A stretch of 32,000 nt of DNA from Nostoc sp. PCC 7120 = FACHB-418. GTDB lineage: Bacteria > Cyanobacteriota > Cyanobacteriia > Cyanobacteriales > Nostocaceae. Below, piece by piece: positions 7,672-13,250 of this stretch (the stretch's first letter is position 1; every line of letters begins with the position of its first letter). The stretch covers positions 720,001-752,000 of the forward strand of contig NC_003272.1 of assembly GCF_000009705.1 (NCBI RefSeq), written 5' to 3'. The position numbers were made by a program, and so were the translations under genes. Under the pieces are notes generated by a model, which worked only from the letters and a program-made list of their open reading frames with translations, was not told where the DNA came from and ran no database searches.

Positions 7672-10395
7672 ATGACATCTGCTGAAATGCCGGCTAACCC
7701 TGGCTCAATATCAACATCCCATATAACCAACAAAGATACGCACCACAGCGATCCCAGGAATCAAGCTGTAGGTGTGTATGTGACGGTGCATGGTCACTTT
7801 TACCAGCCACCGCGCGAAAACCCTTATCTAGACTCAATTGAGCGCCAACCCAGCGCTGCGCCTTTCCACGATTGGAATGAGCGCATCCACTGGGAATGTT
7901 ACCGTCCCAATGCTTTTGCCAGGGTGTTGAATGACCAAGGCGAAGTGACGGGGATCGTCAATAATTACGAATATATGAGCTTTAACATCGGCCCCACGCT
8001 GATGTCATGGCTAGAACGGTATGATGTCGAGGTTTATCAACGGATTTTGGAGGCGGACGCAAAAAGCTGCCAACGTCTGCAAGGTCATGGGAATGCGATC
8101 GCGCAAGTATATAATCACATCATCATGCCCTTGGCGAACGAACGGGATAAACGCACCCAAATTCGCTGGGGTAAAGAAGACTTCCGCACCCGCTTTGGCC
8201 GTGATCCCGAAGGAATGTGGTTGGCAGAAACAGCAGTAGATTACGCAACCTTAGAAGCTTTAGTGGCTGAAGGTATTCGGTTTATTGTCTTAGCACCATC
8301 CCAAGCGCAAAGATGTCGTCCTTTCCCCACAGAAAATGATCCCCAACCAGAATGGTATGAAGTTGGTGGTAATCAAATTGATCCCACCCGTCCTTATCGT
8401 TGCTATCTGAAATCTAGACTTAGCAATAAATCCTCTGTTTTAAGTTCAGTAAAAGATAGGGCAATTGCAGACACCAATCCTCAATCTCTGCAAGATTTAC
8501 CTTATATAGATATCTTCTTCTACGATGGCCCCATATCACGGGACATGGGCTTTAGTGATGTTGTCTATAACTCTCACCACTTTGCCGGACGTATTGGTTC
8601 AGCAGTGCGCGGGGATCATCGTCAATCACAACTGATTTCTGTTGGTACAGATGGGGAAACCTTCGGACACCACAAAAAAGGCACAGAAAAAACTCTCGCC
8701 TATGCCTTTATCAAGGAGTTTCCTAGTCAAGGTTGGACTGTAACCAACTTTGCCCATTACCTCAGCTTATGTTCTCCTACCTGGGAAGTAGAAATCAAGC
8801 CAGTAACAGCTTGGAGTTGCGCCCACGGCGTAGATAGATGGCAAGAAGATTGTGGTTGCGGCGGTGAAGGTGGTATTTGGCATCAAAAATGGCGGCGGCC
8901 GTTGCGGAATGCCTTAAATTGGCTGCGGGATCAGTTAATTGAGGTGTTTGAGGAATATGGTAATCAATTATTCCGTGATCCCTGGCAAGCACGAGATGAG
9001 TATATTCAAGTCATCCGCGATCGCTCTCCTGCCAATATTAGCCGTTTTCTCTCACGCCATCAAACCCACAAACTCACCGCCGCCGAACAAGTAGACGCTT
9101 TGCGCTTATTAGAAATGCAGCGTCACACTTTATTCATGTTCACCAGTTGCGGTTGGTTTTTTGAAGAACTTTCTCGCCCCGAAGGAACCCAGATTCTGCG
9201 TTACGCCGCCCGCGCTTTGGAACTGGGGGGAGATGTGGCTGGTGTGCAGTTGGAAAAAGGCTTCCTCAAACGTTTGGGTTTAGCTCCTAGTAATGTGGAG
9301 TCGTTTAAACATGGTGGTGAAGTTTACCGCCAACTTGTACAAACTGCCCAGATTAGTTTTAAACAAGTAGCCGCCCATTACGCCATTTCTTCCCTGTTCA
9401 ACAATCACAAACAGGTAGAAACCCTGCATACTAAGTCTCTACCTGGGACAAAACAACCCCATCCTCACCAAAAACGGGTTTATTGCTACACCGTCAATGA
9501 GATAGATTACCAACTGCAACGCATGGGATCATTAACCCTAGCAGTCGGTAACTTAAAACTCGTGTCGGAGATTACCTGGGAAAGCGAAAATTTAGTCTTT
9601 GCTGTCCTGCATTTAGGCGGTTGGGATTTCCATTCCTGCATTCAACTATTTACCGGACGACGTGATTACAGCCAATTGAAAGAAAAGCTGTTTACATCAC
9701 TGCAACAGGCTAGCGCCGCCCAAACTATTTTGGCGATGACGCAGGTATTTGGTGATGAAACCTTCAACTTGCAAAATCTGTTTGCGGAAGAACGCCATCG
9801 GATCATGCGCTTATTGAGTCAAGAAACCCTGACAAGGTTAGACCAGTTATATACTCAGGCATACCGGGATAATTATGGTGTGTTGATGGCATTTCACCGC
9901 GATGAACTAGCCGTACCGCAAGAATTACAAGTGGCGGCGGAGATTGCTTTGGGTTATCGCTGTATGACAACATTGCGATCGCTAGACCAAGATATTACAG
10001 AACCCCAACTGAGTTGGAATCACATAGTAGAATTAGAAGCGATCGTCACTGAAGCTAAACATCTGCGTTGCCAATTAAATATTCCGGAAGGTAAGCAGAT
10101 GTTAGAACAGCTCATTCTGCGCTTGCTCTGGAGATTACTGCATGATACCAATGGCAGTTTTGCCATAGAGATGCAATGCTTAGAACGGTTAATTAACGTT
10201 AGCTATCAGCTAAATATTGGCATTTCCTTACATCAGTCTCAAGAACTGTACTTTAGTTGTCTACAAAATCAAATACTACCTTTGTGTTTGACTACCCTTG
10301 CTGATAAAGAAGAAACGAGTCAATGTCTACAATTGCTGAAATTGGGACAGAAGTTGGCAGTTGATGTCAGTGCAATTCTGAATCAATTCAAGTAG
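7672..10395 (+). CDS. Glycoside hydrolase family 57 protein with long C-terminal alpha-helical extension (DUF3536-type architecture)
   Basis: 907 aa. The N-terminal VHGHFYQPPRENP block is the GH57 signature region. Further conserved blocks are GPTLMSWLE, WLAETAVD and GTDGETFGHH. The C-terminal half is helical with no recognisable catalytic motif. Confidence 0.85.
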   Translation: MTSAEMPANPGSISTSHITNKDTHHSDPRNQAVGVYVTVHGHFYQPPRENPYLDSIERQPSAAPFHDWNERIHWECYRPNAFARVLNDQGEVTGIVNNYEYMSFNIGPTLMSWLERYDVEVYQRILEADAKSCQRLQGHGNAIAQVYNHIIMPLANERDKRTQIRWGKEDFRTRFGRDPEGMWLAETAVDYATLEALVAEGIRFIVLAPSQAQRCRPFPTENDPQPEWYEVGGNQIDPTRPYRCYLKSRLSNKSSVLSSVKDRAIADTNPQSLQDLPYIDIFFYDGPISRDMGFSDVVYNSHHFAGRIGSAVRGDHRQSQLISVGTDGETFGHHKKGTEKTLAYAFIKEFPSQGWTVTNFAHYLSLCSPTWEVEIKPVTAWSCAHGVDRWQEDCGCGGEGGIWHQKWRRPLRNALNWLRDQLIEVFEEYGNQLFRDPWQARDEYIQVIRDRSPANISRFLSRHQTHKLTAAEQVDALRLLEMQRHTLFMFTSCGWFFEELSRPEGTQILRYAARALELGGDVAGVQLEKGFLKRLGLAPSNVESFKHGGEVYRQLVQTAQISFKQVAAHYAISSLFNNHKQVETLHTKSLPGTKQPHPHQKRVYCYTVNEIDYQLQRMGSLTLAVGNLKLVSEITWESENLVFAVLHLGGWDFHSCIQLFTGRRDYSQLKEKLFTSLQQASAAQTILAMTQVFGDETFNLQNLFAEERHRIMRLLSQETLTRLDQLYTQAYRDNYGVLMAFHRDELAVPQELQVAAEIALGYRCMTTLRSLDQDITEPQLSWNHIVELEAIVTEAKHLRCQLNIPEGKQMLEQLILRLLWRLLHDTNGSFAIEMQCLERLINVSYQLNIGISLHQSQELYFSCLQNQILPLCLTTLADKEETSQCLQLLKLGQKLAVDVSAILNQFK

Positions 10396-10411
10396 TAAAA
10401 TGGGTTAACTA

Positions 10412-10447
10412 AAGATCCCTGACTTCTTAAAGAAGTCGGGGATCTTA
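10412..10447. terminator. Near-perfect hairpin between convergent GH57 gene and the HNH-cassette (putative bidirectional terminator)
   Basis: aagatccctgacttctt (10412-10428) pairs with aagaagtcggggatctt (ending 10446): about a 16-bp stem with one mismatch and a minimal loop, followed by attctc. It starts 17 nt after the GH57 stop codon. Confidence 0.55.
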
Positions 10448-10456
10448 TTCTCAAAA

Positions 10457-10738
10457 CTAATGCACATTCGGACGATCTTCGCAATGGTAAGGATAAAGCC
10501 ATTCACACTTAAAAAGTCCGCCGGATTTTTGCTCAAAAAATGTCCCAGCATGACGACTCTTGGATATATTTATGCCTGCTTTTGTTTTAATTTCATATAA
10601 CCAAGGAAAAGCTGCTACTAAAACGGCGACAATAGCAACAGAATGAAAAGCTTTGGTTTTAAAGTTGTGAAATTTACGGGAGTTGCTGTTACGGTTTAGA
10701 GGCATAATTCTATAACTGACAGTTAATCCAAGCTCCAT
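10457..10738 (-). CDS. Small hypothetical single-pass membrane protein (third gene of the KGK-HNH cassette)
   Basis: 93-aa ORF starting 6 nt after the HNH stop. It has one clear TM segment (AFHSVAIVAVLVAAFPWLY) and a C-terminal CEWLYPYHCEDRP. An alternative start is Met12 (10705). There is no obvious SD and no recognisable family, so coding status is uncertain. Confidence 0.35.
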   Translation of the reverse strand: MELGLTVSYRIMPLNRNSNSRKFHNFKTKAFHSVAIVAVLVAAFPWLYEIKTKAGINISKSRHAGTFFEQKSGGLFKCEWLYPYHCEDRPNVH

Positions 10739-10744
10739 GTTAGC

Positions 10745-10990
10745 TCAAATTTCAAAATGTCGCCGGAAGCGTGAATCAAGTTTGTCAGTCTTGCATCGGT
10801 TGCAGTCAAAACATAAAGTATGCAGATTACTTATATCATTTTGACCACCACGAGCCAAAGGGATAATATGGTCAATAGTTAAGTTAGTTTCTAAACCCGT
10901 TTTACCACAACTTTGACATTGAAACTTATCTCGTTGAAATACATATTGTCTAACTTCTGGTGGTATACGAATCCGAGGAGTTTTGCTCAT
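10745..10990 (-). CDS. Minimal stand-alone HNH endonuclease (81 aa)
   Basis: The HNH/zinc-finger signature is complete: CQSCGK ... DHIIPLARGGQNDISNLHTLCFDCNRCK. Its ATG overlaps the TGA of the upstream KGK gene (ATGA at 10987-10990). A GAGGAA Shine-Dalgarno lies 7 nt upstream, inside the KGK coding tail. Confidence 0.85.
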   Translation of the reverse strand: MSKTPRIRIPPEVRQYVFQRDKFQCQSCGKTGLETNLTIDHIIPLARGGQNDISNLHTLCFDCNRCKTDKLDSRFRRHFEI

Positions 10991-11373
10991 GATGTTTCCT
11001 CATTAATCATGCGGCGTAAATCATCGAGAGGGGATTCAGTTTCACTAATTTCTGAATGCACGTTGTTATCCGTTTCTGATTCTTCTTCAATGTAAAACTC
11101 AACACTAATATTAAACTTTACTTTCCCTTTTTTCCAACCTTGTGAACCAATATTTAATATCTGACAATACAGACCTTCATTAAACCAAATTTTAGAATAT
11201 GGCTGTTGTATAATTATTCCATTCGCATTAAATTGCTGCTGTAATTCACACGCTAAATCAGAACGATTCGCTTTATGAAAAGCTTCTAAAAATTTAGAAA
11301 TTTTGTAAGTATAATCTCCAATTTCCAAAACATCATTATCATTACATTCTGCTTGTTTAAATCTATCTTCCAT
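10987..11373 (-). CDS. KGK-domain protein (cyanobacteria-restricted family of unknown function), paralogue 1
   Basis: 128 aa. It has the WFNEG...GSQGWKKGKVKFNISVEF core (the KGK motif) followed by a strongly acidic tail, EEESETDNNVHSEISETESPLDDLRRMINEETS. It is translationally coupled to the HNH gene. Confidence 0.75.
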   Translation of the reverse strand: MEDRFKQAECNDNDVLEIGDYTYKISKFLEAFHKANRSDLACELQQQFNANGIIIQQPYSKIWFNEGLYCQILNIGSQGWKKGKVKFNISVEFYIEEESETDNNVHSEISETESPLDDLRRMINEETS

Positions 11374-11526
11374 CTCAACCTCAACTTAAAAAACTCTCTT
11401 CCTCTCTCTTATTTGCGTCTCTACGCCTCTGCGTGAGACAATAAAAACCTAGTTGACAAAAAGTGAATTATAAATTCCCTAAAATCAAGATATGGTGTGC
11501 ATTACCCACCCTACAGATACTGAAGT

Positions 11527-11916
11527 TCATGATGTTTCCTCATCAATCATCCGGCGTAAATCATCAAGAGGGGATTCTGATTCATGAGTGGGCGGTTCAT
11601 CAGGAATAAATTCTAGAGTCACTTTGATTCTTAAGCGCCCCTTTTGCCAGCCTTTAGTTGCAGGCTTTAACACTTCACAATCTACACCTTCATCAAACCA
11701 TTTATGAGTATATCTATAAAATTTATTGCCAACCAAATAGCCACCGGGATCTATAGATATTCCATAGGAATTTAATAAAATATATAATTCTTCTGATAAT
11801 TTACTGCGGAAGGCTTTTTTGATTGCTTCCTTGATATGAAAAATTTTAAACACTTTATCTTTAACAGACAAAGCATCATCATTACTACAATTACTGAGGT
11901 CAAAATTTTCTTCCAT
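11527..11916 (-). CDS. KGK-domain protein, paralogue 2
   Basis: It has the same architecture: WFDEG...ATKGWQKGRLRIKVTLEF plus the tail ESESPLDDLRRMIDEETS. The ORF track starts at a GTG (11919). The ATG one codon in (11916) gives MEENF..., parallel to MEDRF... in paralogue 1. Confidence 0.75.
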   Translation of the reverse strand: MEENFDLSNCSNDDALSVKDKVFKIFHIKEAIKKAFRSKLSEELYILLNSYGISIDPGGYLVGNKFYRYTHKWFDEGVDCEVLKPATKGWQKGRLRIKVTLEFIPDEPPTHESESPLDDLRRMIDEETS

Positions 11917-12143
11917 CACAGAATTGGTAATAAATTTGGTGAATTTCTTATCAGGAATTATATATTAAGTAAGAATATTGCAAGTTAGATTGAACCTATG
12001 GCTTGAGATAAGTAGTGTGAAAAAAATCTCCAACCACATAATACATCGTTACAGAGAATGGCGCATTAGGTGAAAACCATAACACACCAATCCCTTTCAA
12101 AGCAAACAAGTAAACAAGTAAGAAGCGATCGCTGAAAATATTA

Positions 12144-13046
12144 CTACCTTCGAGTGTTAGGCATGGTAGGTAAGTTAACATTCTCACCATTAAATAATCC
12201 TTTGACTTTCTTGTTCGGATAGGTTTTGTAATTCCATTGCAAATTAGCGATCGCTGCTTCCCGTTTCCAACCTGGCTCAAATCCTACACGCACGCCATCC
12301 CAGAACAACTCGTAACCTATTTTCTGACCATCTAATACGCCTTCAACCCGTTTATTTGGATAGGTTTTGTGATTCAATTGCAAATTGGCGATCGCCGCTT
12401 CCCGGTTCCAACTTGGCTCAAATCCTACACGCACGCCATCCCAGAACAACTCATAACCTATTTTCTGACCGTTGAAATAGCCTTCTATTTTCCTCTTAGG
12501 ATAGGTCTTTTTAGTCAATTCTAAATGAGCGATCGCCTCAGCGCGCGTTACCTTCTCTATCTTGCCAACGAACACATCATCCAAAAATAACTGGTATCCC
12601 TGGGAATTCAGGTGACTTTCATCAGGTAACATTGCGCGACTGGGGAATTTCAGGGTAATAGGTTCTGTTCGACACGTTCCCGAATTGCAGAGTTTAATCG
12701 CCCCTTGTAATTGTATTAGTCTTGAGTTTGAGAGGCATCCTTCAACCCGAACCCTACCCTTTGGTGTATCCATTGCGCCAAAAACTGGACAACTTGGTTC
12801 GCTTGCAGATCCAATGGAGACTTTTTGACTAGTCAACGACCCAGAGCGAGTGTAGAGATGATAATGAGTTACATCTGCTTCCACACAGATATTCACATCC
12901 ATCGCAGAGATGCACTGTAGGAAATCGGATTCGGCTTTTGCAGGCTGTGTCGATGAGAAAGTTACTAAGGGAAAACTGAGGCTAAAGAGGGTAAGAACTG
13001 ACAGTAAGTATTTGCGGCGAGACTGAGAATTTTGTGTAGTAAACAT
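12144..13046 (-). CDS. Secreted Cys-rich protein with three 47-aa tandem repeats (no family recognised)
   Basis: 300 aa. It has an N-terminal signal-peptide-like segment (RRKYLLSVLTLFSLSFPLVTFSSTQPAKA/ES) and a region of about 100 aa with 6 Cys. Three repeats follow: GYQLFLDDVFVGKIEKVTRAEAIAHLELTKKTYPKRKIEGYFNGQKI, GYELFWDGVRVGFEPSWNREAAIANLQLNHKTYPNKRVEGVLDGQKI and GYELFWDGVRVGFEPGWKREAAIANLQWNYKTYPNKKVKGLFNGENV. Confidence 0.8.
   Translation of the reverse strand: MFTTQNSQSRRKYLLSVLTLFSLSFPLVTFSSTQPAKAESDFLQCISAMDVNICVEADVTHYHLYTRSGSLTSQKVSIGSASEPSCPVFGAMDTPKGRVRVEGCLSNSRLIQLQGAIKLCNSGTCRTEPITLKFPSRAMLPDESHLNSQGYQLFLDDVFVGKIEKVTRAEAIAHLELTKKTYPKRKIEGYFNGQKIGYELFWDGVRVGFEPSWNREAAIANLQLNHKTYPNKRVEGVLDGQKIGYELFWDGVRVGFEPGWKREAAIANLQWNYKTYPNKKVKGLFNGENVNLPTMPNTRR
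12177..12599 (-). repeat. 3 x 141-bp intragenic tandem repeat (encodes the 47-aa units)
   Basis: Units 2 and 3 are nearly identical at the DNA level. For example, ggctcaaatcctacacgcacgccatcccagaacaactc occurs at 12274 and again at 12415, exactly 141 bp apart. Each unit carries its own HIP1 site. Unit 1 is more diverged. Confidence 0.85.
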
Positions 13047-13148
13047 AATTAAAGCTCCTGTATAAATACTTCGATGTTTTCTGTTGGCTGTTGAGCAAAC
13101 TGATTACCGACAAAAACTATAGCGGTTTGCAATTGAGTCAAATATAGA

Positions 13149-13250
13149 CCTAACCCCCAGCCCCTTAAGGGGAATAAAACCCCTTGTAGGAGAGAAGTCC
13201 AAGTGTATTGCATACAAACGGTAAGTGCTATATATCCCTTTGTAGGGGGA
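13149..13250. repeat. Short GC-rich dispersed-repeat modules (MITE-like, non-coding)
   Basis: It contains cctaacccccagCCCCTTAAGGGGa (perfect 12-nt palindrome at 13161-13172) and ccctttgtagggggagtttttt (13236-13257). Related modules recur at 21471-21549. Confidence 0.45.

Follow-up and report, generated by a model that had tools for sequence, protein, structure and literature searches.

Genes for dynamin-like proteins (DLPs) of one cyanobacterial group, the 'KGK clade', are known to stand beside genes for KGK-domain proteins (Jilly et al., 2018, PMC5827413; Gewehr et al., 2023, PMC10104851). Both papers describe a DLP gene followed by KGK genes only, and an HNH nuclease is absent from both texts; in a supplementary table (PMC5827413), 4 of the 19 DLPs of the KGK clade have as their next gene downstream one labeled 'HNH nuclease' or 'Restriction endonuclease'. 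In the library searched, no paper joins dynamin-like proteins with HNH and cyanobacteria, and PF08872 is named in two papers only. The locus considered here lies in a 32,000-nucleotide window of Nostoc sp. PCC 7120 (NC_003272.1, 720001-752000, the whole stretch of DNA that was analyzed; coordinates are window positions unless stated otherwise), in which two tandem KGK genes are followed by a gene for an 81-aa HNH nuclease. An earlier note, made from the sequence of the window alone, had read this block as a candidate toxin/immunity or defense cassette and had not recognized in it the distal end of the KGK-clade DLP neighborhood already published (PMC5827413). Relatives of the locus share with that neighborhood a SynDLP ortholog followed by one or more KGK genes, while the PCC 7120 window is without a DLP. 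The PCC 7120 block is a version of an ancient, vertically inherited cluster that comprises a SynDLP-type DLP, one to four tandem KGK genes and the 81-aa HNH nuclease, and there is little doubt that it forms part of a conserved DLP-KGK-HNH module. The DLP-KGK neighborhood was already known; new are the HNH gene as its regular third member, the invariant, tethered KGK peptide and a contrast in evolutionary rates. The core of the block consists of the following features.

11527..11919, minus strand: KGK2 (all0631), a PF08872 protein and the distal copy of the tandem pair; 130 aa from the GTG at 11919, or 129 aa from the RefSeq ATG at 11916
10987..11373, minus strand: KGK1 (all0630), a PF08872 protein of 128 aa and the HNH-proximal copy
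10987..11044, minus strand: 58-nt 3' tail of KGK1, repeated as the KGK2 tail at 11527-11584; it encodes ESPLDDLRRMI and contains the HNH ribosome-binding site
10745..10990, minus strand: HNH nuclease (beta-beta-alpha-metal) of 81 aa; the tag asl0629 is taken from the numbering only

The ATG of the HNH gene overlaps the TGA of KGK1 (ATGA), a GAGGAA lies 5 nt before this ATG and inside the KGK1 tail, and 153 nt separate the end of KGK2 from the start of KGK1. The arrangement noticed earlier, three open reading frames (ORFs) on the minus strand with a second KGK gene upstream, an ATGA overlap and a ribosome-binding site in the KGK1 tail, was thus recovered at the same coordinates. That all0630 (128 aa) is KGK1 and all0631 is KGK2 agrees with the literature (PMC2823733), and an exact-sequence look-up likewise gave all0631 for KGK2. 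Both proteins had been called KGK proteins, and PF08872 bears this out, matching KGK1 at 5.1e-44 (150 bits) and KGK2 at 2.3e-42 (144.6 bits; cut-off 25.6) over profile positions 1-119 of 119, tail included; NCBIfam gave no KGK match. The HNH protein is matched by PF14279 (5e-20, 71.6 bits; cut-off 27.5) and PF01844 (8e-17, 61.5 bits), and with its D-H...N...N/H signature and two CxxC pairs it is assigned to HNH/HNH_5 by sequence.

In relatives, the protein encoded ahead of the KGK genes is a SynDLP ortholog, matching SynDLP/Slr0869 (PDB 7zw6) over its full length (E = 0, 1077 bits) and sharing 71-86% identity among loci; the best 120 matches in a search for its homologs came only from filamentous relatives, at 72% identity or more. 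One sample was centered on KGK and consisted of 42 loci found by scanning metagenome contigs with the KGK alignment. Here the arrays hold one to four KGK copies, a SynDLP-type DLP stands upstream of the array in 32 loci and an HNH gene downstream in 24; as 5 loci are truncated and 13 negative, the HNH is present in 24 of 37 assessable loci, or about two-thirds, and the fraction was similar after near-duplicate contigs had been removed. With about one HNH assumed per genome of several thousand genes, chance adjacency of KGK and HNH would be far below 1%, and the association is therefore real; the enrichment that had been proposed as a check on the pair is present, with adjacency across several cyanobacterial orders. 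The full cluster occurs in Nostocales, Microcoleus and Coleofasciculus, and because all three genes are found together, in the same order, in loci where identity has dropped to about 54% (DLP) and 56-66% (HNH), the arrangement must be old. The earlier suggestion that KGK and HNH are obligately co-translated did not survive this comparison: the ATGA overlap is present in 5 of the 24 HNH-positive metagenomic loci, and in Microcoleus and Coleofasciculus, where a Dynamin_N gene is followed by one or two KGK genes and then by the HNH, KGK and HNH are separated by 50-550 nt and ATGA is absent. In loci of the Coleofasciculus/Microcoleus type (L088-L093, L102, L110, L125), an antisense DUF4090 gene recurs as a fourth neighbor, either just past the HNH or in the gap that separates it from the KGK array. 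The HNH slot of HNH-negative KGK arrays was also searched for other nucleases, as in a swappable effector slot; one Uma2-like ORF (L124:4297-4707; PD-(D/E)xK 'putative restriction endonuclease') occupies the usual HNH position, a single case of a family that is very abundant in cyanobacteria, and the genes found there are otherwise unrelated, which gives no sign of such a slot.

Conservation of the nuclease was followed in a larger set of genomes. A search for HNH homologs gave 478 clusters, and the 120 of them that were listed span Nostocales and Oscillatoriales, share 73-89% identity and are nearly all 79-82 aa long, a few reaching 95 aa. An HNH-centered sample was made up of the best 80 of 460 stretches, with one genome per species and 80 different assemblies, and a single HNH locus was retrieved per assembly. 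Across these loci the mean identity of the HNH is 81% and its pairwise ratio of nonsynonymous to synonymous substitution rates (dN/dS) is about 0.08; the alignment shows no variation at either CxxC pair or at D40-H41, N55 and N64, and the zinc/catalytic motif is found in 80 of 80 orthologs. Judged by this signature the nuclease is catalytically intact, as had been proposed from the PCC 7120 protein. It is a conserved, syntenic chromosomal gene, nearly always convergent to a GH57 gene and often with a homolog of the small gene asl0628 between the two, and it is flanked by housekeeping genes, not by defense islands.

What stands upstream of the HNH is far less constant. A KGK ORF abuts the HNH start in 15 of the 80 species loci, by ATGA in 11, by a TGATG-type overlap in 2 and across a 4-nt gap in 2, and in 13 of the 15 the one to three KGK genes are directly preceded by a gene for an 811-825-aa Dynamin_N protein. 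The DLP is present in 24 of the 80 loci, 11 of which have the DLP and then the HNH without KGK. In 38 loci, all of one Nostoc clade rich in lichen symbionts, a GFO/IDH/MocA oxidoreductase gene is found instead, stopping 4-7 nt before the HNH in most of them; in two others (L034:2817-4001, L066:251-1438) a DUF2252 gene lies between KGK and HNH and overlaps the HNH by ATGA; and in 14 no KGK, DLP, MocA or DUF2252 match adjoins the HNH. Degenerate 3' ends of DUF2252 genes were noticed by eye upstream of the HNH at L012, L022, L033, L054, L068, L071, L074 and L080, and whatever ORF precedes the HNH, its end seems always joined to the HNH start.

The ancestral state upstream of the HNH is DLP-KGK. 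A vestige of the KGK tail before the HNH was significant by nhmmer in three KGK-less loci (L015, L019, L023), compared with 1 of about 190 control segments. A resemblance to the KGK tail seen by eye in Nodularia-type loci was not significant and was not counted. At L019:1268-1603 a truncated KGK gene, its tail intact, precedes the HNH, and a transposase-like ORF ends 335 nt before the HNH. Anabaena subtropica (L002) retains DLP-KGK-HNH. Two loci labeled as Acetobacteraceae and Actinomycetota metagenome-assembled genomes (L029, L053) show cyanobacterial synteny (GH57 at 80% identity in one; DLP at 73% with KGK and HNH in the other) and are probably mis-binned cyanobacterial contigs.

A nuclease that keeps its place while its neighbors change could be an independent housekeeping enzyme, for example in DNA repair or processing, which shares an ancestral neighborhood and read-through transcription with DLP-KGK and has no physical or regulatory contact with KGK. 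Its strong conservation, the single locus retrieved per assembly and its retention after the loss of KGK or DLP neighbors are in keeping with this, as is its habit of abutting any upstream gene, by ATGA in the case of DUF2252 and 4-7 nt past MocA, which suggests borrowed expression signals. Adjacency to KGK arrays nevertheless holds at about 54% DLP and 56-66% HNH identity, beyond the usual reach of neutral synteny, and the 81-aa protein has no substrate-binding domain. Minimal phage HNH enzymes such as those of GVE2 and HK97 (gp74) normally require a partner. The fate of the separated genes also speaks against independence: in both split genomes checked, Nostoc sp. XA010 and a Lobaria cyanobiont, a DLP-KGK pair is kept at another site that lacks an adjacent HNH, and the XA010 HNH stands at the MocA/GH57 site (L030). 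We consider it quite unlikely that the HNH merely shares space with the cluster. PCC 7120 presents the reverse split, with KGK and HNH together and no DLP in the window, and KGK is the member common to both surviving pairs, DLP-KGK and KGK-HNH.

The window carries a DLP-less derivative of the DLP-KGK-HNH cluster. No DLP was detected in its 32 kb (tblastn best E = 1.5), and the placing of a DLP immediately upstream of KGK, which defines the KGK-clade cluster, is absent from the window and present in relatives, including L087-L091. In the lineage of PCC 7120 and A. variabilis the DLP is gone from the locus, a 300-aa repeat protein is found there instead, and there are two KGK paralogs. The same repeat protein takes the place of the DLP at the locus of N. 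parmelioides (L001), the closest relative with one KGK, where a single KGK gene, the ortholog of KGK2 (95% identity), directly abuts the HNH.

The KGK proteins themselves have a distinctive architecture. A KGK profile search of 1.84 billion representatives returned 1062 clusters at 50% identity, and the proteins are nearly all single-domain and 115-150 aa long, with a few tandem KGK fusions. In the alignment a variable body, in which the C..IL...G...WKKGK hairpin is conserved, leads through an acidic, low-complexity linker to an invariant E-SPLDD[LI]R; SPLDD[LI]R lies 11-19 residues from the C-terminus in 109 of 150 KGK representatives, and the tail motif is a feature of the whole KGK family, not peculiar to the PCC 7120 pair. 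A minority (P0339, P0346, P0370) carry VP[DP]ELLED[IV]W or EVEDVWKV instead of SPLDDLR, an ending that may represent a second class of docking peptide. In an AlphaFold2 (AF2) model of KGK1 (mean predicted local-distance score, pLDDT, 76), a mixed alpha/beta body is predicted to be followed by disorder at residues 100-112 and by a helix at 115-127 that includes ESPLDDLRR. The HNH-proximal KGK evolves quickly, at 39% mean identity and a dN/dS of about 0.43, with SPLDDLR invariant.

At the nucleotide level, synonymous sites of the tail vary freely between genomes, whereas within the PCC 7120 window the two 58-nt tails are near-identical (53/58), with the similarity stopping exactly at the ATGA junction. 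This identity within the window, together with the lack of KGK1 at the N. parmelioides locus, is the ground for proposing recombination or gene conversion at the tail, and it points to this route for the addition, loss and reordering of KGK copies; recombination at the 58-nt tail accounts for the gain or loss of KGK1 by comparison with N. parmelioides. The same junction raises the question of whether the HNH is a selfish homing endonuclease with the KGK tail as its target or insertion site, which would explain both the ATGA junction and the duplicated tail. The junction does coincide exactly with the end of a conserved sequence of 58 nt, repeated in the window, and the nearest solved and phage relatives of the HNH are phage HNH enzymes. 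A homing gene would hardly be expected at no more than one locus per genome and at the same chromosomal position across Nostocales, under a dN/dS of 0.08 and with neither an intron nor an intein context; moreover, there is no viral or plasmid ortholog, the HNH forms junctions with unrelated genes as well, and KGK genes without a neighboring HNH carry the tail motif too. On the single syntenic locus, the purifying selection, the lack of mobile copies and the presence of the motif without HNH, this possibility was rejected and is given almost no weight.

The searches behind these statements found no HNH ortholog in 50,697 phage records, 72,556 plasmids and 2.9 million viral contigs, the best identity being about 54%. 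Among solved structures, the HNH nicking enzyme of phage GVE2 (5h0m, 5.5e-9) and the HNH domains of IscB come closest. Phage terminase-associated HNH enzymes such as that of GVE2 and the HNH domains of IscB and Cas9 have the same zinc-stabilized H-N-N core and are the best sequence matches, but the locus has no terminase, RuvC or RNA-guide context and identity to phage HNHs is below 55%. The NCBIfam IscB model matches the HNH domain only, at 57 bits (1.5e-15), far from its cut-off of 175, and the 81-aa protein has no RuvC domain; it is not a member of the IscB/HEARO group. An AF2 model of the HNH built on a 20-sequence alignment reached a pLDDT of 55.6.

Taken as a whole, the explanation that we favor, with moderate confidence, is a conserved cluster in which KGK acts as an adaptor or regulator that links the HNH to the DLP. 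The KGK proteins would be small, acidic subunits of three parts: a fast-evolving globular body that would supply specificity, a disordered acidic segment that would serve as a tether, and an invariant amphipathic C-terminal helix (ESPLDD[LI]RR) that would dock on a conserved partner, be it the basic HNH or the DLP, or the two together. The catalytic output would be the HNH, which, having no DNA-recognition domain of its own, would depend on partners for targeting or restraint. In the abutting loci, which are dominated by Nostocales, the abutment or overlap of the HNH start with the upstream stop would ensure that it is co-produced with KGK. The isoelectric points (pI) are 4.55 for KGK1, 5.24 for KGK2 and 9.22 for the HNH, and 12 of the final 35 residues of KGK1 are D or E, in agreement with the acidic tails reported before; charge complementarity (pI 4.6 versus 9.2) and translational coupling fit direct contact between KGK and HNH. 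Physical binding of KGK to the HNH or the DLP, and the direction of regulation, are what we infer from such patterns. That KGK binds the HNH and controls or targets it is possible, though held tentatively, and a hitherto unrecognized three-component system in which fast-evolving KGK bodies, duplicated in tandem, would sense a signal (such as phage proteins, membrane damage or nucleoid state) while the C-terminal helix would couple DLP assembly to release or targeting of the HNH as a DNA-cutting effector is a doubtful extension. By analogy, the predicted KGK layout resembles hubs of the single-stranded DNA-binding protein (SSB) type, in which a globular domain and a disordered acidic linker carry a conserved C-terminal peptide that recruits enzymes, but there is no sequence or fold similarity between SSB-type hubs and KGK.

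The most obvious competitor is the reading from which the earlier note had started, that KGK is an antitoxin or immunity protein against a toxic HNH DNase in a cassette resembling a type II toxin-antitoxin (TA) pair, a colicin operon or an abortive-infection system, with the DLP as a possible sensor in the full cluster. The gene order is suggestive: an acidic protein with a disordered C-terminus upstream, a basic nuclease with an intact motif downstream, and ATGA here and in 11 of the 15 KGK-abutting species loci. An HNH DNase paired with an acidic immunity protein has a precedent in colicin E9/Im9, and the fast evolution of KGK in one to four copies is what components of an arms race show. 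The GTPase domain of the DLP also weakly matches LeoA/LeoBC of Eleos (4e-11, partial coverage), and bacterial DLPs such as DynA are reported to act in phage defense (PMC12998192). As judged against type II TA systems, however, the likeness is limited to gene grammar, that is, an overlapping two-gene operon with a small, labile antitoxin; the nuclease is kept without an adjacent antitoxin, and its distribution is neither patchy nor mobile. In 65 of the 80 species the HNH follows MocA, DUF2252 or DLP genes, among others, with no abutting KGK and under the same constraint, which does not support KGK as an obligate antidote in cis; any interaction in those species must therefore act in trans, and KGK paralogs acting in trans could suit an immunity role.

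Further differences from the known pairs are that the PCC 7120-type HNH is conserved, syntenic and persistent without a neighboring KGK in most sampled species and that KGK is far more divergent than the nuclease, an 81%-identity toxin with a 39%-identity antidote being unusual for a cognate pair. In colicin operons the immunity gene follows that of the nuclease and encodes a four-helix protein, whereas KGK is modeled as mixed alpha/beta. The overlap is lineage-specific and absent in Oscillatoriales. Nor does the locus look like a mobile defense or TA cassette, as had been suggested, for the HNH is a single locus in synteny beside GH57 across Nostocales, with housekeeping flanks and without defense islands, and has no phage, plasmid or viral ortholog (best identity 54%, 2.9 million viral contigs included). 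PADLOC-DB v2.0.0 returned no match for KGK1, KGK2 or asl0628 and only generic HNH-domain matches for the HNH, which places none of them in a defense system. The comparison with Eleos and DynA is similarly partial: a dynamin-like GTPase heads the full cluster, but the Eleos match covers the GTPase region only, Eleos has neither KGK nor HNH, and the cyanobacterial cluster is core-genomic. Toxin/immunity is hence judged unlikely. The multi-copy KGK pattern of variable bodies on a constant tail fits an adaptor better than a dedicated antidote.

Several observations weigh against the adaptor explanation as well. The HNH remains intact, under equal purifying selection (dN/dS 0.08), in the 65 species where no KGK abuts it, and among the top 150 KGK representatives there is no fusion of KGK to HNH, DLP or an enzyme domain that would support physical binding to either partner. 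A Foldseek search of the KGK1 model against the PDB gave a best E of 0.83, so that the adaptor role is without backing from homology. For A. variabilis a Tandem-B DLP is the only one listed (PMC5827413 supplement), the DLP of A. subtropica has no cluster mate at 90% identity, and the absence of a DLP from PCC 7120 refers to this window only. Finally, the published map of PCC 7120 transcription units has no unit for all0631-all0630-HNH (PMC10287535), which suggests weak expression under the conditions mapped.

The remaining features of the neighborhood lie on either side of this core.

10457..10705, minus strand: asl0628, a small protein with a single transmembrane segment, 82 aa from Met12; a longer, 93-aa ORF runs 10738->10457
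10410..10447, strand not assigned: hairpin between the convergent asl0628 and alr0627, -22.1 kcal/mol, z = -5.3
10396..11115, plus strand: 3' untranslated region (3'UTR) of alr0627, 720 nt, antisense to asl0628, the HNH gene and the KGK1 tail (PMC10287535)
7672-10395, plus strand: alr0627, a GH57/DUF3536 gene
12144..13046, minus strand: gene for the 300-aa repeat protein, in the DLP position of relatives; context, outside the module

The small membrane ORF had been counted as a member of the unit and as a 93-aa protein, and both points have been revised. In the published map, TU00399 is asl0628 (contig positions 730730->730143), with its own transcription start site (TSS) at window position 10730 and a 5'UTR of 25 nt (PMC10287535 supplement), and because of this mapped start asl0628 begins at Met12 and has 82 aa, as annotated. 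It is a separate transcription unit in that map, to which read-through from upstream may still contribute. Homologs of asl0628 occur at about 45 of the 80 species loci (54-89% identity) and were not detected in the Microcoleus/Coleofasciculus loci L087-L093; the gene is Nostocales-specific and lies outside the core of the cluster. On the opposite strand, TU00398, the alr0627 mRNA (contig positions 727113-731115), has a 3'UTR of 720 nt that extends up to window position 11115 (PMC10287535 table and supplement), and this mRNA rises on nitrogen step-down with a log2 fold change of 3.43 (PMC10287535). The coding coordinates of alr0627 set the offset between contig and window positions at 720000. 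The alr0627 3'UTR, which runs antisense over asl0628, all of the HNH gene and the tail of KGK1, could be a regulator of the cassette.

Of the borders proposed for the block, the strong hairpin at 10410-10447 was confirmed, and it is read through by both published transcripts, those of asl0628 and alr0627 (PMC10287535); the bordering repeat elements were not, the sole repeats near the block being the pair of 58-nt KGK tails and HIP1 palindromes. HIP1-type palindromes (GCGATCGC) at 12120-12133 and 12246-12259 flank the start of the 300-aa ORF and are ordinary for cyanobacteria. The 300-aa ORF (12144-13046) has no Pfam or NCBIfam match; its N-terminus resembles a signal sequence, and it contains three repeats, each about 44 aa long (GYELFWDGVRVGFEP.W.REAAIANLQ.N.KTYPN). 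The block is low in G+C, as had been described, with a value of 0.32-0.37 over 10501-12000 and of 0.43-0.48 in the region of ppsA (all0635; PMC7699953). Recent horizontal transfer, as the low G+C might suggest, was considered and rejected on the conserved synteny across Nostocales. An Rfam scan of the whole window found no family, including no HEARO/omega-RNA and no riboswitch, and a consensus scan for promoters and terminators over 10300-13200 gave nothing beyond shuffled expectation.

The cellular role of SynDLP is unassigned despite a solved structure, and KGK is among the larger cyanobacteria-specific domains without an assigned function. The link to a nuclease gives a new handle on the role of bacterial dynamins and turns an annotation of 'membrane dynamics' into testable hypotheses. 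These concern the binding partner of the KGK tail, the gating of the nuclease by the DLP or by KGK, and DNA cleavage as the possible output under phage attack or membrane stress. As a genetically tractable strain with the KGK-HNH half and no DLP at the locus, PCC 7120 offers a natural reduced system. Should the three-component system hold true, it would give bacterial dynamins a nucleic-acid output and would provide KGK with its first function.

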